Part shown: positions 3,473 through 15,976 of the stretch, piece by piece
How the letters are laid out: every line of letters begins with the position of its first letter
Position numbering within the stretch: position 1 is the stretch's first letter
From: a virus
Reading direction: 5' to 3' (one strand)
Length of the DNA stretch: 64,000 bases
Virus record (IMG/VR): IMGVR_UViG_3300021356_000797
Location: 1 to 64,000 of that record
Position numbers and translations under genes: made by a program
Notes under the pieces: model-generated
Databases searched by the model: none
Seen by the model: the letters and a program-made list of their open reading frames with translations, nothing else
Told to the model about the DNA's origin: nothing

Positions 3473-4005
3473 TGCTGGTAAAATTATTTGATATTCAGAA
3501 CGGAACTGTAATTCCTAGTGAACACAGTTATACATTGAACTTCCTAAAGGTGATTAGAGAAGAGTATCCTGAAGAACATTTAGACATTTATGCCTACTTA
3601 TTCTACATGACTTGCCCTAATCCGGATATGAATCCGTTCTTCAATATTCCGGATAGAGATAAAGAAGACCTTATACTCAGGGAGTTACGTACTGGTGAAG
3701 ACTTCTCTGACTTTGATACAGATGAAGAGATGATTCAAGAAGCTTTAAAGAATTGTACTCTACTATATGAGACTCCTACTTATAGAGCTTATAAAGGTAT
3801 TGCTAGTATGTTGGACCGTTTGGCAGACTATATGATGAGAACACCAATAGAACATGGTAGAGATGGTAACATTAATCAGATAGTTAATGCAGCTGCTAAA
3901 TTTGAACAGATAAGAAATTCATTTAAAGGAGCTTATTCAGATCTACAGGAAGAGCAGAAGTCTTCTGTTAGAGGAGGTCAAAACTTATCTTATGATCAAA
4001 TGTAA
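3472..4005 (+). CDS. conserved crAss-like protein upstream of terminase (candidate small terminase subunit)
   Basis: Position directly before terL with overlapping stop/start; helical; C-terminal SSVRGG. Confidence 0.55.
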   Translation: MLVKLFDIQNGTVIPSEHSYTLNFLKVIREEYPEEHLDIYAYLFYMTCPNPDMNPFFNIPDRDKEDLILRELRTGEDFSDFDTDEEMIQEALKNCTLLYETPTYRAYKGIASMLDRLADYMMRTPIEHGRDGNINQIVNAAAKFEQIRNSFKGAYSDLQEEQKSSVRGGQNLSYDQM

Positions 4006-6209
4006 TGAGTGATATCAGTATCTCATGTTATAACTGTAAGGAGCAAGCTTGGACAGAGGCGAAGTTCAAAGAAAAAAATGAACTTGTCAAGTTTATTCAA
4101 AAACTTTTTAAAGAACCTGGTGAGTATAACTTCACTGAGGAGACTGAAATTTTTACTGCTGAAGCCACTAAATTCAATAGATATGGGGTTTATTGTACAG
4201 CTCCTTACATGTCAAAAGAATTTATTGAGTACTGGGATGATCAGAAACAAAAATGCCGCAATGGGGTAATTATCCAAGGAGAAAAAGACACCTGGTATCT
4301 TACACGTGACTACTACATGTGGTTAAACTTTCTTCCCATCTATGATAAAGAAGAAAAGAAGTATGGCTTTGCTAAGGTTAGAGATGCCCAGTATCATATG
4401 GCATTGTATGAATGGCTAGCTGAAGCTGAATACAAACACGTAGCCATTCTGAAAAAACGTCAGATTGCATCATCATACTTTCATGCAGCCAAGCTTCTAA
4501 ATACCTATTGGTTTGAAGAAGGTGCTGTACTAAAGATGGGTGCATCACTTAAATCCTATGTTAATGATGAGGGTACATGGAAATTCCTGGACGAGTACAA
4601 GAACTTTCTTAATGAACACACCGCCTGGTACAGACCAGCAAATCCTGATAAGACTCTTTTATGGGAGCAAAAGATTGAGGTTACTATCAATGGGCGTAAG
4701 CAAAATAAAGGGCTTATGTCTAAGATACAGGGGATGTCTTTTGAAAAGAATGCCACCAAAGGGGTAGGGGGTCCTGTTACTTATTTCTTCCATGAGGAAG
4801 CAGGTATTGCTCCTAAGATGGACCAAACTTATGAATACTTAAGACCTGCCATGGCGTCAGGTCAGATTACTACAGGTATGTTTATTGCAGCAGGATCTGT
4901 AGGGGATTTGGAACAATGTGAACCATTAAAGGACATGATCCTGAATCCTAAAGCCAACGATATCTATGCAGTAGAAACCAACCTGCTAGATGATAAGGGG
5001 AGTAGAGGAGAAGTGGGACTCTTCATTCCTGAACAGTGGTCTATGCCACCTCTTATAGATAATTGGGGGAACTCAATGGTAGAGGAAGCATTAGCAGCTA
5101 TTCAGGAAGAGAGGGCTACATGGAAAAGAGAATTAAGCCCTGAGCAGTATCAGCTGAGAATATCTCAGAAACCAACAAACATTGCTGAGGCTTTTGCTTA
5201 TCGTAAAGAGTCACTCTTCCCTCAAAACCTTATCTCTTCTCAAACTAAAAGAATTGAGGATAAAGAATATCCTGTAGAATATCTAGAACTAGATTGGGAT
5301 GAAGCTGGTACTGGTATTAAAGCTAGCCGTAGTAGAAAGCAACCAATTAATACTTTTCCTGTAGATAAGCGTCAAGAAGATAAGACAGGGGTGCTTTGTG
5401 TTTATGAGCGTCCTGTAGATAATCCTGAGTTTGGTATGTACTATGCAAGTATTGACCCCGTAGGAGAAGGTAAAACAACAACGTCTGAGTCACTTTGTAG
5501 CATCTATGTATACAAGAACCCTATTGAGGTAACAAAGATCACTGACGAAGGTCCTCAGAGCTTTGTAGAGGGTGATAAGATTGTAGCTGCCTGGTGTGGT
5601 AGATATGATGATATCAATAAGACTCATGAGCAGCTAGAAAAGATTATAGAATATTACAGAGCTTGGGCTCTTGTGGAAAATAACGTGTCACTATTTATCC
5701 AGTATATGATTGCTAAACGCAAACAGAAGTGGCTGGTTCCCAAGGATCAAGTGCTATTCCTGAAAGATATAGGGAGTAATAGAAGTGTATATGCAGAGTA
5801 TGGGTGGAAGAACACTGGTACTATGTTTAAGAATCACTTGATAAACTATGCTATTGAGTTCCTTAAGGAGGAGATAGATATAGAAACTGATGCTGACGGT
5901 ACCATCACTAAACGTATATTTGGTATTGAACGCATTCCTGATATTATGCTTATGAAAGAAATGCAAGCATACCAGCCAGGTGTAAACGTGGATAGACTGG
6001 TATCATTTGCAGCTCTTATAGGATTTGCCAAAGTACAACAAGCAAATAGAGGATATCAGAAACGAATTGATAATGAGTCATCTGTAAAATTGGATAATAC
6101 GCAGAAAATGACTAAATTAAATATGAGTCCCTTTAGACATATTGGAGGGGGCAACAAAGGTATTATGGGAGGTAAAGGAAAGCGTTCAGCTTTTAAAAAT
6201 TTAAAGTAA
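4005..6209 (+). CDS. terL: terminase large subunit
   Basis: ATPase LKKRQIASSY and Walker B FFHEEAG; RNase H nuclease ASIDPV, LVENN, NVDRL. Confidence 0.92.
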   Translation: MSDISISCYNCKEQAWTEAKFKEKNELVKFIQKLFKEPGEYNFTEETEIFTAEATKFNRYGVYCTAPYMSKEFIEYWDDQKQKCRNGVIIQGEKDTWYLTRDYYMWLNFLPIYDKEEKKYGFAKVRDAQYHMALYEWLAEAEYKHVAILKKRQIASSYFHAAKLLNTYWFEEGAVLKMGASLKSYVNDEGTWKFLDEYKNFLNEHTAWYRPANPDKTLLWEQKIEVTINGRKQNKGLMSKIQGMSFEKNATKGVGGPVTYFFHEEAGIAPKMDQTYEYLRPAMASGQITTGMFIAAGSVGDLEQCEPLKDMILNPKANDIYAVETNLLDDKGSRGEVGLFIPEQWSMPPLIDNWGNSMVEEALAAIQEERATWKRELSPEQYQLRISQKPTNIAEAFAYRKESLFPQNLISSQTKRIEDKEYPVEYLELDWDEAGTGIKASRSRKQPINTFPVDKRQEDKTGVLCVYERPVDNPEFGMYYASIDPVGEGKTTTSESLCSIYVYKNPIEVTKITDEGPQSFVEGDKIVAAWCGRYDDINKTHEQLEKIIEYYRAWALVENNVSLFIQYMIAKRKQKWLVPKDQVLFLKDIGSNRSVYAEYGWKNTGTMFKNHLINYAIEFLKEEIDIETDADGTITKRIFGIERIPDIMLMKEMQAYQPGVNVDRLVSFAALIGFAKVQQANRGYQKRIDNESSVKLDNTQKMTKLNMSPFRHIGGGNKGIMGGKGKRSAFKNLK

Positions 6210-6210
6210 C

Positions 6211-8976
6211 ATGCCTAAAGTTATAAATGCAATGCAGGCTAAGGCTGGTGCCAAGGTTGAAAAGAATAAGATGGGAACCTTGGAACAGCCAACTCAGTTT
6301 CTTCCTGAAAAGAAGAAGGATCAAGAGTGGGCTGCCTGGAATATAGATTGGATTGAGGTACAAGGTCAGAAGCAACTTAAGAGAAATGCTAGACGCTTGC
6401 TAAAGAACTACAAGCTTGCCAAAGGTATTATTGACAAGACTGACTACATTGTAGAAGAAGACAACCTATATGCAGATCTAGTAGATCAGCTTACTCAAGA
6501 AGATGTATCTGCACTTGAGATTAAATTTTACCCCATCATTCCTAACGTAATCAATGTTCTTATGGGAGAGTTTGCATCTAAGTATGCAAAGGTTACCTTC
6601 CGTGCTGTAGATGACACATCTTATAATGAGATGATGGAGCAGAAAAGAGCAATGATTGAAGAGACTCTTTTGGCAGATGCTGCTTCTAAGATTTTAAATA
6701 AACTGATACAGCAGGGTGCAGATCTACAAAACCCTGAAGTTCAGCAGATGTTATCTAAGCAGTCTTTAATGACGCTCCCAGAAATTGAAGACTTCTTCCG
6801 TAAAGATTACAGATCACTTGTAGAAGAGTGGGCAGATCACCAGATGAAGGTTGATGAAGAACGTTTTAAGATGTATGAGCTAGAGGAAAGAGCTTTCCGT
6901 GATATGCTTATTACTGATAGAGAGTTCTGGCATTTCCGTATGGGAGAGGATGACTATGATATTGAATTGTGGAATCCAGTTCTTACATTCTACCACAAGT
7001 CACCAGATGTACGTTATATTTCTCAGTCTAACTGGGTAGGTAAATCTGATATGATGACTGTTGCTGATGTTATTGATAAGTATGGTTACTTAATGACAGA
7101 AGATCAGATTAAAGAACTTGAGAATGTTTATCCTTCTAGAGCTGCTGGTTATGCAATTCCTGGTACTCCTAATGATGGATCTTTCTATGATGGTACTAGA
7201 TCACATGAGTGGAATAGTATTGAGAATGGATCTTTAGGTTACCGTCAGTTTGTGGCTAACTATGACCTAGGTTTTTCAGGGGGTGGTGATATTGTAGATT
7301 GGATCTTAGGAGAGTCAGAAGATTTATTTGACTTTGGTAAAACATTTATGCTTAGAGTGTCTACAGTCTACTGGAAAACTCAGAGACGTGTAGGACATCT
7401 TACTAAAGTACTAGAAGATGGTACGGTCATTCAGGATATTGTTACTGATGATTACGCTGTAATAGATAAACCCCTTTATAATACAAATGTATCTAAACAG
7501 AAGACTAAAGAGAATGTAATCTTTGGTGATCATATTGATTGGATTTGGATTAATGAAGTATGGGGTGGTATTAAGATTGGACCTAATCATCCAACATATT
7601 GGGGGATGACTAGTCCAGATGGTGTTAGTCCTATGTACTTAGGTATTGATAAGCCAGAGCCAGGTAGACTTAAGTTTCAGTTTAAAGGAGATACTACTTT
7701 ATATGGATGTAAACTTCCTGTAGAGGGTGCAGTATTCTCTGATAGAAACACTAAGTCAGTATCTCTAGTAGATATGATGAAGCCTTACCAGATTGGATAC
7801 AATATTGTAAACAACCAGATTGCAGATATCCTTGTAGATGAATTAGGTACTGTGATCATGCTAGATCAAAATGCTATTCCACGTCACTCATTGGGAGAAG
7901 ATTGGGGTAAAAACAACTTAGCTAAAGCATATGTAGCAATGAAGGATTTCCAAATGCTTCCTCTTGATACATCTATTACAAATACAGAGAATGCTCTTAA
8001 CTTTCAGCACTATCAGGTGTTGAACCTAGAGCAAACTCAACGTTTGATGTCTAGAACGCAACTTGCTAATTACTTTAAGCAACAAGCATTTGAAGCTATT
8101 GGTGTTAATGCTCAGCGTTTAGGTGGGGCTATGGAACAACAAACAGCTACTGGTGTACAGGCTTCTTTAGAAATGTCTTATGCACAAACTGAAACATACT
8201 TTATTCAGCACTCAGATCACTTGATGCCAAGAGTACATCAGATGCGTACAGACTTGGCTCAATACTACCATAGTACAAATCCTTCTGTAAGACTTCAATA
8301 CATTACATCTGAAGATGAAAAGGTTAACTTTACTATTAATGGTACTGAGTTACTCTTAAGAGACTTTAATATTTTCTGTACTACTAAAGCAAATCACAGA
8401 AGAATTCTTGAGCAACTTAAGCAGATGGCTCTTACTAATAATACTACGGGTGCTAGTATTTATGATCTTGGTAATATTATTAAGTCTGATAGTATTGGTG
8501 AGGTTACTAGTATTATGAAGGAGGCTGAACAAAAACAAATGCAACAACGTCAAGCTGAACAACAGCAGGCTATGCAAATGGAACAGCAAAAACTTCAGAT
8601 GGAAGCTCAAGAAAAAGAAATGGCTAGACAATTTGAATCTGACCAAAATGATAAAGACCGTCAGAATAGAATTATTCAGGCTGAGATCAAAGCTTCAGGA
8701 TATGGTGCTATGCAGGACATTAACCAGAATAAAGTTTCTGACTTCCAAGATGCTCTTAAAGATATTAGAGATACTGAAAGATATCAAGCTCAAACAGAAC
8801 TTAAGAGAGAGTCTGAGAATAATAAGAAAGCGTTCCAGCAGCAGAATATTGCTCTTAAGCGTGAAGAGCTTCAAAGTAAAGAACGCATTGCTAATACTCA
8901 ATTAGAGATTGCTAGAGAGAACAAAAATAAGTATGATGTTCCCCAAGCAAAGAAATCTGATAAGAAAGAGAAATAG
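6211..8976 (+). CDS. portal protein
   Basis: 921 aa directly after terL; YPIIPNVINVLMGE, SLVDMMKPYQ, Gln-rich C-terminal barrel as in crAss-like portals; ends in TAG. Confidence 0.88.
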   Translation: MPKVINAMQAKAGAKVEKNKMGTLEQPTQFLPEKKKDQEWAAWNIDWIEVQGQKQLKRNARRLLKNYKLAKGIIDKTDYIVEEDNLYADLVDQLTQEDVSALEIKFYPIIPNVINVLMGEFASKYAKVTFRAVDDTSYNEMMEQKRAMIEETLLADAASKILNKLIQQGADLQNPEVQQMLSKQSLMTLPEIEDFFRKDYRSLVEEWADHQMKVDEERFKMYELEERAFRDMLITDREFWHFRMGEDDYDIELWNPVLTFYHKSPDVRYISQSNWVGKSDMMTVADVIDKYGYLMTEDQIKELENVYPSRAAGYAIPGTPNDGSFYDGTRSHEWNSIENGSLGYRQFVANYDLGFSGGGDIVDWILGESEDLFDFGKTFMLRVSTVYWKTQRRVGHLTKVLEDGTVIQDIVTDDYAVIDKPLYNTNVSKQKTKENVIFGDHIDWIWINEVWGGIKIGPNHPTYWGMTSPDGVSPMYLGIDKPEPGRLKFQFKGDTTLYGCKLPVEGAVFSDRNTKSVSLVDMMKPYQIGYNIVNNQIADILVDELGTVIMLDQNAIPRHSLGEDWGKNNLAKAYVAMKDFQMLPLDTSITNTENALNFQHYQVLNLEQTQRLMSRTQLANYFKQQAFEAIGVNAQRLGGAMEQQTATGVQASLEMSYAQTETYFIQHSDHLMPRVHQMRTDLAQYYHSTNPSVRLQYITSEDEKVNFTINGTELLLRDFNIFCTTKANHRRILEQLKQMALTNNTTGASIYDLGNIIKSDSIGEVTSIMKEAEQKQMQQRQAEQQQAMQMEQQKLQMEAQEKEMARQFESDQNDKDRQNRIIQAEIKASGYGAMQDINQNKVSDFQDALKDIRDTERYQAQTELKRESENNKKAFQQQNIALKREELQSKERIANTQLEIARENKNKYDVPQAKKSDKKEK

Positions 8977-10387: not shown

Positions 10388-12007
10388 ATGGCAACTCCTG
10401 TTTTGAACAATGGTATCTTTTTGAGAGATACTTCTTACAAGGCGTCATCTCATGTTGATTCTTACCACTTGGCAAACATGCTAGGTAGTGCAGAACCAAC
10501 TGATATGGGTCCTGTAGACCTTTGGGCTATGGCTCAAAAGGTTGAAATGCCACTATACCAGATGGCATCTTTTGGTGGTAAAAATACCATCACTGTAGAC
10601 AATGCTCGTGGTGAGTATAAATGGCAAGTTCCTGTAGCTCAGGATCTTCCTTACATCATTGAAGACATTGAAGCTGGTAATGAGCGTAAAGGTATTGATG
10701 GTACTACTTTCAAAATCAAGCTTAACAAGCGTGCTTTTGGACATGGTGACATCATTACTTATGACAAGTACAACGGTGCTGAATTGTACATCACTGCAGA
10801 AGATATTCTTCCTGCTGGTGACGGATTCATCTACACTGTACAGTTGGTAAACAATGATAGCTTGAAGTTCTTGGATAACAAGTACTTGGCTTCTGGTACT
10901 AAGATCTTCCGTAAAGGTTCTGCACGTGGTGAGTACGGTGAGCGTTTCTCTGACATGGGTGATGTTTCTACTGGTTACCGTGAATTCTACAACTACGTAG
11001 GTGGTGCAGAAGCACACGTACACTACTCTATTTCTTCACGTGCTGACATGATGATGAAAGGTGGTATGCGTGCAGACGGTACAGTTCCTGTAACTGAGAT
11101 CTGGAGAAACTTGGATAACAGCATGGATCCATCTATTACTAGCTTGGAAGACATGGTATCTAAGATGGGTAAAGATGCAGTTAAGCGTAGCATGGAGAAC
11201 GGTACATTGAGCCGTACTTTTGTTACTAACTTGGAAGCAGCACACTTGTCTAAGATTGCTAAGGATATTGAAACTTACTTGATGTGGGGTCATGGTGGCC
11301 GTGTACGTCAGGACGGACCAGATGATGTACGTCTTTCTGTAGGTTTGTGGAAGCAGTTGGATAACTCTTTCAAGAGAGTATACAACAAGTCTGGCTTCTC
11401 ACTAGATATGTTCAAAGCAGAATTGATGAACTTCTACCAAGGCCGCGTAGAGTTGGCTGGACCAGACCCACAACGTCAAATCATTGTACAAACTGGTTTG
11501 GGCGGTATGAAGCTTGTTAATGAAGCTATCAAAGCTGAAGCTAATGCTTCTGGTCTTTTGGTACGTGCTACTGACATTGGTGCAGTATCTGGTACTAACA
11601 TGGACTTGAACTTTGGTTTTGCATACACTTCTTACGTTATTCCTTTCTTGGCTAACGTTAAGTTTGTATTGAACCCAGCGTTTGATAACCTACATACTAA
11701 TGATATTGAGAACCCTCTAGTAGATGGTCACCCACTAAGCTCTTACAGCTTTGTAGTATTTGATGTTACTGAAAACGGTAATGACAACATCTACTTGTTG
11801 AAATTGTCTTGGGATAACCAATTGAAGTGGTTCTACCAAAATGGTACTATGGATTACATGGGACGTACACAAGGATTCCAGTCTTCTGGTAACTTCAACG
11901 GATACCGTGTATTCATGACACAAACAATGCCAGCTATCTGGGTTAAAGATGCTACTAAGGTATTGAAGATTGTAATGAGAAACCCTGTAACAGGAGGATC
12001 ATTCTAA
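10388..12007 (+). CDS. major capsid protein (crAss-like, HK97 fold)
   Basis: 539 aa, syntenic position, strongly biased codon usage, followed by a terminator. Confidence 0.85.
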   Translation: MATPVLNNGIFLRDTSYKASSHVDSYHLANMLGSAEPTDMGPVDLWAMAQKVEMPLYQMASFGGKNTITVDNARGEYKWQVPVAQDLPYIIEDIEAGNERKGIDGTTFKIKLNKRAFGHGDIITYDKYNGAELYITAEDILPAGDGFIYTVQLVNNDSLKFLDNKYLASGTKIFRKGSARGEYGERFSDMGDVSTGYREFYNYVGGAEAHVHYSISSRADMMMKGGMRADGTVPVTEIWRNLDNSMDPSITSLEDMVSKMGKDAVKRSMENGTLSRTFVTNLEAAHLSKIAKDIETYLMWGHGGRVRQDGPDDVRLSVGLWKQLDNSFKRVYNKSGFSLDMFKAELMNFYQGRVELAGPDPQRQIIVQTGLGGMKLVNEAIKAEANASGLLVRATDIGAVSGTNMDLNFGFAYTSYVIPFLANVKFVLNPAFDNLHTNDIENPLVDGHPLSSYSFVVFDVTENGNDNIYLLKLSWDNQLKWFYQNGTMDYMGRTQGFQSSGNFNGYRVFMTQTMPAIWVKDATKVLKIVMRNPVTGGSF

Positions 12008-12136: not shown

Positions 12137-13150
12137 ATGAGTGTGACTATTGTAGAGAAATACCAAATTGGAAAGTCAGGCAAGATTAGTATCAAGCCTT
12201 ACTTTGACCCAAGTATCAGTAACATGGGTCTTGAGAACTATCAGATGTCTCTAATGGATGGTGTATACCATGAAGAGCAACTTGCTTGTTTAGAGATTAA
12301 CGGGATCAAGAGATATGTAACTGGACTTAATGAATTTGCGCCAGAAGTTAAAATGCTTCCTGCAGATGAAAGAGCTGCTAAGATCCGTGAGATCCGTGAT
12401 GTGGTTGCATCACTAGAGCAAGACTTAGCTGCTAATGTTATTGATCCTGAAAGTAAAGACTTCTGGAAAGAGGTTAAGCTTTTAAGACCAGATAATGATG
12501 AGTTCTGGAGTAAGATTACTCTTAAGTGTGGTAATGACCCAGTATTTTTGGATCCTGTAAAGGACCCTTATGACTTAATTAAGTTATATGCAATTGAAGC
12601 CGGAGGGTTCTCAATTGTAACAAAAAGTTTGGAAGCTGCTAGGAGCAAACCAACCCCTCCTAAATTCTTCCTTGACAAGTTGGAGACTACGGCTGCTAAC
12701 CGTACAGAAATTTCTAAGCTGCGCAATAAAGCATTGGCAGAACTTCAGAAGATGTATGACAAGCAAGCTAACAAGATGTTCTTGGTTGCTAAGGTTGTTG
12801 ATGCTAATAGCACACAATACACTAAGAACACGCCTAATGATATCATCTACGAGAACATGGATAACTACATCAATGGTCTAGGAGTTGATAGAGATAAAAA
12901 GAAAACTGCTCAGGTATTCTTAGATGCAGCAAGACTCAGCATGGAAGTGTTGAAGCTTAAAGCAATTGTAAAGGATGCCACACAATATAGAATGATTACT
13001 ACTAAATCAGATGGTATGATTTATGATCTAGACAGCGGAACAGCTCTAGGACGTACACCTTCAGATGTAGTAGGATTCTTGCAAAATCCTCTAAATGAAG
13101 AGGTTATGATGAAGCTGATGAGCAATGTAGAAGGAATGTGGAACTCCTAA
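12137..13150 (+). CDS. conserved crAss-like capsid-module protein
   Basis: 337 aa immediately after MCP; synteny only. Confidence 0.6.
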   Translation: MSVTIVEKYQIGKSGKISIKPYFDPSISNMGLENYQMSLMDGVYHEEQLACLEINGIKRYVTGLNEFAPEVKMLPADERAAKIREIRDVVASLEQDLAANVIDPESKDFWKEVKLLRPDNDEFWSKITLKCGNDPVFLDPVKDPYDLIKLYAIEAGGFSIVTKSLEAARSKPTPPKFFLDKLETTAANRTEISKLRNKALAELQKMYDKQANKMFLVAKVVDANSTQYTKNTPNDIIYENMDNYINGLGVDRDKKKTAQVFLDAARLSMEVLKLKAIVKDATQYRMITTKSDGMIYDLDSGTALGRTPSDVVGFLQNPLNEEVMMKLMSNVEGMWNS

Positions 13151-13162
13151 ATATATATAACC

Positions 13163-13288
13163 ATGAGTGAAGATAAAGACTTTCAGATGGATGACAGCTT
13201 TGCTGATTTTGTTAATGAGCTAGAGAAGGCCCCTCAGCCAACTTGTAATCTGGAAAATCCTGAAGATTGTGAAGCTTGTGGTAGCTAA
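13163..13288 (+). CDS. 41-aa microprotein ending TCNLENPEDCEACGS (RNR alpha C-terminal tail-like), not in ORF track
   Basis: Translated by hand; exactly fills the 13150-13294 gap and has an AT-rich leader. Confidence 0.75.
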   Translation: MSEDKDFQMDDSFADFVNELEKAPQPTCNLENPEDCEACGS

Positions 13289-13293
13289 GTCCT

Positions 13294-13995
13294 ATGAACA
13301 ACACTACACTGCAAATTAAGTTTAAGCAAAGGCTAAACAAGTTAGCTAGTAACGACTATGATAATATAGAGTGCTGGCAAATAGTTGAAGCGTTTAACAA
13401 GGCTCAGATTGAGTGGTGTAGACGTCAGCTTCATGGGAACAATGTCTTTAAAGAAGGCGATGAGCAAAGTAAAATGCTCATTGATGATCTTCAAGAGTTA
13501 TTGGAAACTACATCTTTACAGGGTATAGAATCTGATAACGTTTATGTAAGTAATTCTCTTCCCAATAATTATCTCTCTTTTAAGAGGGTCAGCACTTTAG
13601 CTAAAACTGAGTGCTGCCCTCCTAGGGATATGACTACTTATTTGGTAGAAGAAGCTAACATAGACATTATCTTAAGAGATCCTTTAAAAAGACCTGATTA
13701 TGACTGGGGAGAAACTGTTTGTACTCTTTCAGGTGGAAGACTCAGAATCTATAGTAATTCTGATTTTACAATCTTCAAACCTACACTTACTTACTACAGA
13801 TCTCCTAGAAATATTGAGATTGCCGGATGTAAAGATCCTTATACTGGCAGTATCTCAAATGGAGACGTGCCCTGTGAATTTAAGGATGACATTGTGGAAA
13901 TCCTTATTGATGAGGCCGTAGCAATTATTGCTGGTGATATTATGGATGTAACAAATTACCAAAGAGAAATTGCTGCAGGACAACGTAATACGTAA
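13294..13995 (+). CDS. head-tail connector / tail ring protein
   Basis: FNKAQIEW, LTYYRSP, CEFKDDIVEILIDEAV pattern typical of crAss-like ring proteins. Confidence 0.65.
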   Translation: MNNTTLQIKFKQRLNKLASNDYDNIECWQIVEAFNKAQIEWCRRQLHGNNVFKEGDEQSKMLIDDLQELLETTSLQGIESDNVYVSNSLPNNYLSFKRVSTLAKTECCPPRDMTTYLVEEANIDIILRDPLKRPDYDWGETVCTLSGGRLRIYSNSDFTIFKPTLTYYRSPRNIEIAGCKDPYTGSISNGDVPCEFKDDIVEILIDEAVAIIAGDIMDVTNYQREIAAGQRNT

Positions 13996-15291: not shown

Positions 15292-15828
15292 ATGGCCTCA
15301 AAACATGAATTAAGTTTAGAGATTCCGGAAACGGCAAATGCTAAACTATTTAGAGTTATTGATACAAGTTCTTACAGCAAGGACCTGGCAGTAGAGTGCC
15401 CAACTTTGCAGATCTTGTCTCCTGGTTTCAATGAGACTAGAGATGTTGAGGCTATAGCTGGCTTCAACTATGTTCTTAATGCTTGTACATTAGGTGTACA
15501 AACGTCAGGCTGTGATACAACTTCTGCAGATTTAGGTGATGGTATCTATGTGATCCGTTATAGTGTTTCTCCTAATGAGTATGTATACGTAGAATACAAT
15601 CATTTGAGAATGACACAGGCACTTAACATGTACTATGAGAAGCTAGGAGAGATTGATTTAGGTGGTTATGATCCTACAGATACTCAACTAGAGTTGCTAG
15701 GTGAAATGAGACTAATTAAATCAATGTTTGACGCAGCTAAAGCAAAAGTAGAATACTGTCATGAACCTAAAGAGGGATATGAACTATTTGTTTATGCCCT
15801 TAAAAGACTAAAGAATCTTTGTGTTTAA
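15292..15828 (+). CDS. virion structural protein (tail hub/adaptor-like)
   Basis: LGDGIYVIRYSVSPN Ig-like motif plus helical C-terminus with AKAKVEYC. Confidence 0.5.
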   Translation: MASKHELSLEIPETANAKLFRVIDTSSYSKDLAVECPTLQILSPGFNETRDVEAIAGFNYVLNACTLGVQTSGCDTTSADLGDGIYVIRYSVSPNEYVYVEYNHLRMTQALNMYYEKLGEIDLGGYDPTDTQLELLGEMRLIKSMFDAAKAKVEYCHEPKEGYELFVYALKRLKNLCV

Positions 15829-15847
15829 CTTAAAAATAGAAACCAAA

Positions 15848-15976
15848 ATGGCTATTTGCCCTAACTGTAAATCAAAACTAAGCTGCAGTTGTCAGAAGAG
15901 AACTGCATCAGATGGAAAACAAGTATGCTCTAACTGTATGTCATCATATCAGCAGCGCATTCTTAAGAATAAATAA
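15848..15976 (+). CDS. 42-aa Cys-rich microprotein (MAICPNCKSKLSCSCQKRTASDGKQVCSNC...), not in ORF track
   Basis: Translated by hand; AAACCAAA leader; stop lies 1 nt before the next ATG. Confidence 0.75.
   Translation: MAICPNCKSKLSCSCQKRTASDGKQVCSNCMSSYQQRILKNK

Follow-up and report, generated by a model that had tools for sequence, protein, structure and literature searches.

A 41-residue peptide encoded in the capsid operon of a marine crAss-like phage ends in a copy of the C-terminal redox tail of the class Ia ribonucleotide reductase (RNR) large subunit, NrdA, of the likely host order Flavobacteriales, an identification strongly supported by sequence comparison. The peptide and phage-encoded RNR were found to be mutually exclusive in two unrelated phage types, and this either/or relation is new evidence that links the peptide with nucleotide supply. 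It probably affects the provision of DNA building blocks by the host. The reading favoured here, to which a probability of about 0.5 was given as a whole, is that the ORF product is translated as a phage accessory peptide and would keep host dNTP synthesis going by mimicking, in trans, the redox tail of the host NrdA.

Genomic setting and conservation of the peptide gene

The source phage, G000, is represented by an IMG/VR record of 103,840 bp with an estimated completeness of 87%, and the window, i.e. the whole stretch of DNA that was analysed, covers bases 1-64000 of this record. The peptide gene lies at 13163..13288 on the + strand, with its ATG at 13163 and its stop codon, included in these coordinates, at 13286-13288. 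Its 41-aa product, MSEDKDFQMDDSFADFVNELEKAPQPTCNLENPEDCEACGS, has a mass of 4.6 kDa, a pI of 4.05, 12 acidic (D/E) against 2 basic (K/R) residues and three cysteines. The gene begins 12 nt after the stop of a 337-aa gene (12137..13150, +), which is a conserved gene of the crAss-like structural module, and ends 5 nt before the ATG of a 233-aa gene (13294..13995, +) for the virion structural protein phrog_29507; these two genes form the borders of its insertion site. The surrounding crAss-like module also holds the large terminase (4005-6209), the portal (6211-8976) and the major capsid protein (Crass_capsid, 10388-12007). The nearest cultured relative of the latter is found in the cyanobacterial Leptolyngbya phage Lbo-JY46 (28% identity over 99% of the length), which is closer to it than any Bacteroidota crAss-like phage in the collection, and a host call through the capsid protein was rejected given that this distant cyanophage is the best cultured match. 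Further downstream in the window, at 15821-15976 (+), a 51-aa cysteine-rich, zinc-ribbon-like ORF (CPNCKSKLSCSCQ...CSNC) overlaps the start of a 230-aa structural-module gene.

The peptide gene was present at this site in 6 of 80 loci that are related via the 233-aa gene. The remaining 74 keep the same flanking virion genes, which mostly abut one another with a gap of ≤10 nt. In other phages its neighbours are small non-structural genes, with, for instance, a RusA-like resolvase close by, or else it precedes an unrelated virion gene; clustering of the neighbours revealed none that is conserved across these contexts. The constant presence and position in the structural module of relatives that mark a crAss-like core virion protein were thus not found for the peptide, which is encoded by a lineage-specific insertion in the capsid operon that is mobile between phages. 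The neighbours likewise included no conserved adjacent maturation enzyme, and no match to a radical SAM, cyclase or protease family in Pfam or PHROG, as would accompany a RiPP precursor. In one phage group (e.g. loci L108, L112 and L125) a downstream gene of 139-150 aa without a family match overlaps the last 21 nt of the peptide gene, which suggests translational coupling.

Homologues were numerous and uniformly small. A word-indexed search of a 5.8-billion-protein set returned 60 of them, 32-60 aa in length, and at least 351 viral contigs encoding a relative of the peptide were obtained from a scan of IMG/VR. Exhaustive HMM search of 1.84 billion representatives gave 124 clusters at 50% identity, all of 32-128 aa, whose members almost all align by their extreme C-terminus; no full-length NrdA was recovered with the peptide profile in this search at E ≤ 0.001. 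Neither the peptide nor the surrounding DNA region had a match in 50,697 deposited phage genomes, and the family is known from metagenomes only. It has no model in Pfam, PHROG or NCBIfam, and its clusters in the ESM Atlas are labelled merely 'hypothetical protein'. Fused longer forms were also considered; the word-based search gave a single candidate, a 153-aa call that is apparently an N-terminally over-extended gene call.

Residues C28, C36, C39 and G40 were invariant in an alignment of 43 homologues and the cysteine spacing was constant, while F13, F16, L20, Q25, P26, N29, E31, N32, P33, E34, E37, A38 and S41 were conserved at 90% or above. Across 51 unique DNA versions the invariant residues were encoded by several synonymous codons each, four being used for Pro26 and four for Gly40, and the terminal serine was encoded by both AGY and TCN codons. 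Over the 17-codon tail, pN was 0.096 and pN/pS 0.115, with synonymous sites saturated (pS 0.84-0.94). Saturation at synonymous sites together with a low pN means that selection acts on the protein, and the ORF is a real gene under strong purifying selection.

Two departures from the common form were observed. In three long members of 103-110 aa (P0089, P0120 and P0138) the helix-plus-tail module described below is preceded by an extra N-terminal cysteine-rich knuckle, CG[KR]PxC...CxC, and the tail reads CENCGS or CDNCGS; the knuckle may be a metal-binding or second redox element. A further sub-type (G402, L315 and P0119) reads ACSIDNPDCEGCGS, with C-x6-C spacing, i.e. one residue fewer between the first two cysteines, and with Cys-Ser in place of Cys-Asn. 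No NrdA with C-x6-C spacing was found in 401 sampled Bacteroidota genomes, and there is accordingly no evidence that peptide variants track host variants.

Resemblance to the Flavobacteriales NrdA tail

The peptide is composed of two parts. Residues 4-22 (13172..13228, +) were predicted by AF2 to form an acidic amphipathic helix that carries the conserved pattern F13-x-D-F16-[VI]-x-[ED]-L20-E, with a mean pLDDT of about 89 for residues 11-20. Residues 19-41 (13217..13285, +), ELEKAPQPTCNLENPEDCEACGS, make up the copy of the NrdA redox tail with Cys28, Cys36 and Cys39, and this part was predicted to be mostly coil, block-mean pLDDT dropping from 68 to 48. No NrdA match reached the first 12 positions of the peptide profile and most began at position 20; the N-terminal acidic helix is, judged from these alignments, novel and not derived from NrdA. 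At 41 aa and with no Pfam match, the peptide has none of the PF02867 barrel, all-alpha domain and ATP-cone of a class Ia NrdA, and by its sequence it is not an NrdA but solely a copy of the NrdA tail. A likeness of the helix region to the C-terminal heptad of the small subunit, NrdB, was also considered (FQMDDSF in the window versus FSLDEDF in the host). When scored against composition-preserving shuffles by means of a PSSM built from 36 host NrdB tails, the peptide from the window gave p = 0.30 and only 1 of 52 members fell at p < 0.05; the short family members lack the first Phe of the heptad.

The tail of the peptide is identical to the NrdA end ...EEEKQAQLTCSLDNPEDCEACGS* at 17 of 23 positions, including the three cysteines, and has the same stop position. 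Reduced to the motif, the peptide reads TCNLENPEDCEACGS and the Flavobacteriales NrdA TCSLDNPEDCEACGS. The features of the redox tail are present, namely a CxxC within the last ~6 residues at the extreme C-terminus, preceded by C-S-[LI]-[DE]-N-P-[DE]-x with Asn in place of Ser. This replacement is systematic: Cys-Ser occurs in every NrdA tail collected here, whereas Cys-Asn occurs in 48 of 51 peptides.

The specificity of the match was evaluated with the peptide profile in six-frame translations of 151 genomes, an even and unselected draw from the order of a Flavobacteriaceae MAG. A significant match to the end of NrdA was obtained in 138 of the 151, at 19-41 bits (maximum 40.6), and in all but one of the 138 it was the single match in the six frames. 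In nearly every case the match spanned profile positions 20-40, and the frame that it ended was 805-830 aa long; two of the matched frames were confirmed by Pfam as carrying the RNR barrel domain. In a phylum-wide sample, 15 of 201 genomes matched, and more weakly. Identity at third codon positions between the peptide and NrdA tails was near random (7-15 of 23). A match that is specific and restricted to one order, combined with near-random third positions, indicates a likeness maintained by selection and not the trace of a recent transfer.

Other searches gave a concordant picture. The motif C-x-[LIVMF]-[DE]-N-x-[DE]-x-C-x-x-C-G-S-stop, back-translated and run over 185,579 prokaryote genomes, returned at least 120 matches against an estimated ~1 expected by chance. 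Among the matches listed, nearly all lie at the end of frames of ~800 aa from Bacteroidota and Bdellovibrionota, and a small number come from Poseidoniales and other groups; the four frames checked by Pfam all contained ATP-cone, Ribonuc_red_lgN and Ribonuc_red_lgC, and the NrdB encoded next to such frames end in F[ST]LD[EA]DF. Alignment of the peptide with NrdA tails by hhalign gave 97.9%, a value that is partly circular as the tails had been chosen with a motif derived from the peptide. Since the motif scan and the hhalign set were both selected by the peptide's own motif, the unselected whole-genome test was run and is relied on here. The 13 top matches of a profile search against the PDB included the C-terminal ends of yeast Rnr1 (874-886, ACAIDNPEACEMC), Pseudomonas aeruginosa NrdA (951-962) and human RRM1 (778-792 of 792), aligned to profile positions 26-40, none of them individually significant.

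These results bear out much of the original prediction, which had described an unannotated 41-aa acidic ORF at this position and read its end as a stand-alone copy of the class Ia NrdA redox tail. The coordinates and the sequence given were correct and the ORF belongs to a conserved family under purifying selection; the tail motif that it gave does end RNR frames of ~800 aa in Bacteroidota and Bdellovibrionota; and the copy itself is upheld by the unselected genome test and by the cysteine spacing, whose retention in homologues had been proposed as a check and was complete in the 43 aligned.

As a side observation, the class Ia RNR of Bacteroidota and Bdellovibrionota is eukaryote-like at both tails (loci L169-L288), NrdA ending in CS[LI][DE]NP..C..CGS and NrdB in F[ST]LD[EA]DF. 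One Halobacteriovoraceae NrdB ends exactly in FTLDADF, the mammalian R2 heptapeptide. The same NrdA tail was seen on two contigs of Poseidoniales (marine group II archaea) and on one contig of a Synechococcus-labelled MAG.

Relation to phage-encoded RNR

No RNR large subunit, NrdB, NrdD, thioredoxin or glutaredoxin was found in G000, and NrdB, NrdD, thioredoxin and glutaredoxin were absent from all five peptide-bearing genomes searched (G000 and four others). An RNR large subunit was encoded by 0 of 19 peptide-bearing contigs, 10 of which are at least 90% complete. The distribution was then compared within phage types. Of 23 large crAss-like relatives, 19 carried RNR and no peptide, one (G011) carried the peptide and no RNR, none carried both and three carried neither. 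A second type of ~60-kb phages, unrelated to the crAss-like type, was delimited by a phrog_13704 virion protein of 460 aa. Its 14 genomes with a completeness of 90% or more fell into 11 with RNR and no peptide and 3 with the peptide and no RNR, and no genome had both or neither. When all genomes at least 90% complete were pooled, none of the 13 peptide carriers had an RNR, whereas 25 of 26 non-carriers did. Fisher's test gave p = 1.7e-9 on the whole pool, and 0.0011 on the genomes whose sampling took no account of the peptide.

Because counts of genomes are phylogenetically dependent, trees were built. These were computed from structural genes and may not mirror whole-genome history, these phages being mosaic. 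In the crAss-like tree the carriers fell into two separate, well-supported clades, each sister to a clade that bears RNR and no peptide. In the tree of the second type the peptide label changed at least three times on supported branches, and RNR flipped the opposite way in 3 of 3 independent pairs. All five independent contrasts (2 + 3) thus point in one direction, with a sign-test p of 0.06, which is suggestive and not conclusive.

The absence of RNR from G000 is genuine and is not a result of contig incompleteness. The structural and replication modules of G000 are both collinear with those of G033, which has an RNR; at the point where the G000 contig breaks, G033 has no more than about 4 kb of small ORFs; and the variable block that holds a putative nrdJ in G033 has different content in G000. 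In G001, nrdB-nrdA lies immediately upstream of a histidine-kinase/receiver/TM cassette, and G000 has this cassette (63-88% identity) without nrdBA.

The crAss-like relatives G001-G041 carry one of two RNR types, at different genome positions. One is an NrdAB whose 541-aa NrdA has no ATP-cone and ends in a CxxC tail; the other is a frame of 620-666 aa with a weak match to the RNR barrel and a CX4C tail, putatively NrdJ-like. The 100% complete G005 carries neither RNR nor the peptide. The tails of the relatives' phage RNRs (...ILECASCEG, ...ILNCAVCEA, ...PSCLSCDG and ...CAGGSCEIT) all have cysteines of their own and are unlike the peptide, which rules out its origin from a phage RNR. They also speak against the suggestion in the original prediction that the peptide serves a tail-less phage NrdA, given that G000 itself has no RNR, thioredoxin or glutaredoxin.

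The cassette was considered separately as a possible partner of the peptide. In G000 it lies at 78.1-80.7 kb, beyond the window (L297:15645-18227), and comprises a histidine-kinase-like ATPase, a stand-alone receiver domain, a coiled-coil 2-TM protein and PhoH. Genes with 61-88% identity to its receiver and TM proteins occur in the otherwise unrelated ~60-kb phages, just upstream of the peptide gene, and in the crAss-like G001, after nrdBA. The presence of the cassette did not track that of the peptide (5 of 16 carriers versus 2 of 15 non-carriers) and it was rejected as a partner; it looks like part of an accessory pool common to phages of one host group.

Proposed role, alternatives and known systems

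Each turnover of a class I RNR leaves a disulfide in the active site, which is reduced by a disordered C-terminal tail with two cysteines; thioredoxin or glutaredoxin then returns the tail to its reduced form (PMC9669993, PMC4078304). In vitro, the activity of mouse RNR increased up to 3-fold once a second reduction route was added (PMC4078304), which indicates that re-reduction can limit the enzyme. A free and abundant copy of the tail would be expected to meet the partners of the host tail, that is the active-site channel of NrdA and/or the host reductant, and could thereby keep host RNR making dNTPs for phage replication. Most plausibly it would work as an additional trans-acting electron shuttle, with the conserved helix as a docking element; alternatively it could be a decoy that shields the native tail from a host inhibitor. 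Support of dNTP supply via the host enzyme is inferred from the lack of RNR in carriers, from lineages that have one or the other and from the rarity of having neither (1 of 26 near-complete non-carriers), which suggests that peptide and RNR substitute for each other. The peptide would then be a cheap functional alternative to a whole phage RNR. We tentatively extend this to the proposition, held with somewhat less confidence than the mimicry reading itself, that phages have evolved a minimal RNR alternative, a stand-alone arm of ~40 residues that would insert into the class Ia RNR of the host and increase or safeguard its turnover, so that a lineage carries either an RNR or the arm.

Several points weigh against sustained host dNTP synthesis as the role of the peptide. 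The gene is placed in a late structural operon in G000, an odd time for boosting dNTP synthesis, and an untethered peptide does not have the effective local concentration of the native tail. The change from Ser to Asn after the first cysteine could mark a non-productive, inhibitory binder, and the extra N-terminal cysteine knuckles of some members hint at metal binding. In addition, the likely host rests on the tail match, while the nearest cultured phage (28% identity in the capsid protein) infects a cyanobacterium.

The opposite effect on the same enzyme is accordingly the alternative closest at hand, though we regard it as unlikely. The free tail, possibly anchored by its helix, could fill the active-site channel of host NrdA or form a dead-end mixed disulfide; the native tail would be blocked as by Sml1 in yeast, host dNTP synthesis would be off and the phage would use degraded host DNA. 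The evidence for mimicry of the NrdA tail applies equally to such an inhibitor, the Asn after Cys28 systematically separates the peptides from true tails, and Sml1 is reported, in a passage of PMC6382339 that cites Zhang 2007, to compete at the R1 catalytic site. Since the carriers have no RNR of their own, inhibition would however cut their sole de novo source of dNTPs. An inhibitor would be expected alongside a resistant phage RNR and the opposite was seen, and the near-absence of phages with neither gene suggests substitution of one for the other. Alternatively the RNR may not be the target at all and the tail may be a handle for the host reductant, either diverting reducing power or recruiting thioredoxin to another process, much as T7 DNA polymerase uses host thioredoxin. 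The isolated E. coli R1 tail peptide is reportedly recognised by Grx1 (PDB 1QFN), and the conserved helix could bind a second partner. The NrdA tail is moreover a natural substrate of thioredoxin and glutaredoxin (PMC9669993, PMC4078304). Such a decoy or adaptor would leave the mutual exclusivity with phage RNR unexplained, and the various phage backbones have no second partner in common; it is judged a slightly weaker candidate than inhibition of the enzyme.

Two further explanations dispense with the NrdA tail as a functional model. The peptide might be a cysteine or metal-binding component of the virion or its assembly that serves the capsid proteins as redox helper or zinc knuckle, with its likeness to NrdA incidental; its place inside the structural operon of G000, the three invariant cysteines and the additional knuckle of some relatives are in line with this. 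Lineage-specific insertion and the other locations in other phages make a virion role unlikely, however: the gene is missing from 74 of the 80 relatives with the same flanking virion genes, which abut there, and elsewhere is found among small non-structural genes. Identity to NrdA at 17 of 23 positions with the same stop is not incidental, and the tail is predicted to be flexible and not a folded knuckle. This explanation is thus given little weight, and the idea in the original prediction of a thiol-redox helper for virion proteins falls with it. The likeness to the 3' end of nrdA, in phages that lost or lack RNR, would also be compatible with a non-functional relic, a leftover nrdA fragment or a chance ORF. 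This has a negligible probability and is refuted as far as sequence evidence goes, by strong purifying selection at saturated synonymous sites, by the conserved non-NrdA helix, by loci unrelated to the RNR locus, by a resemblance to the host tail and not to phage RNR tails, and by the occurrence of 124 clusters across many phage backbones. What probability remains beyond these readings is reserved for an explanation not foreseen here.

The supply of DNA precursors has its bottleneck at RNR, which is also among the commonest phage metabolic genes. If the role in host dNTP synthesis is true, replacement of a whole phage RNR by a 41-residue peptide would be a new route of viral takeover of host metabolism and would add a new class to the auxiliary metabolic genes, the trans-acting mimic of an enzyme's flexible tail. 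It would also be a natural demonstration of the RNR redox arm working, or being blocked, in trans. As a simple molecule open to synthesis, the peptide would in addition lend itself to probing or modulating class Ia RNRs of the eukaryote-like kind, human R1 having the same tail motif. As the tail matches one bacterial order it could further serve as a sequence-based host predictor for uncultured marine phages. More generally, unannotated microproteins as short as about 40 aa can carry functional information.

No publication on a phage mimic of the RNR tail was found in a literature search, and comparison was therefore made with cellular and synthetic systems. The closest is the tail of eukaryote-like class Ia NrdA/R1 itself (Flavobacteriales, yeast Rnr1 and human RRM1), which has in common C-x-[LI]-[DE]-N-P-[DE]-x-C-x-x-C-G-S at the C-terminus. 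The peptide shares with it all three cysteines, predicted flexibility and up to 17 of 23 residues, but is a free 41-aa product and not the end of an enzyme of ~810 aa, is joined to an unrelated acidic helix, has Asn for the invariant Ser after the first cysteine and is encoded by phages without RNR. Small proteins that act on the large subunit are known in Sml1, and the disordered eukaryotic RNR regulators Spd1, Hug1 and Dif1 are grouped with it. According to the same passage of PMC6382339 (citing Zhang et al. 2007), Sml1 blocks R1 by competing at the site of the R1 C-terminal CX2C tail. These regulators differ from the peptide in being cellular, checkpoint-controlled inhibitors that are non-viral and not copies of the tail; no similarity to Sml1, Spd1, Hug1 or Dif1 was found in the Pfam, NCBIfam, PHROG, PDB profile or exhaustive searches, and the effect of the peptide on RNR is probably opposite in direction to theirs. 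Synthetic and viral peptides of the R2 C-terminus (e.g. FTLDADF), which compete for the docking groove of R1, share the principle of an isolated RNR tail acting on the other subunit. These mimic the tail of the small subunit, whereas the phage peptide mimics that of the large subunit.
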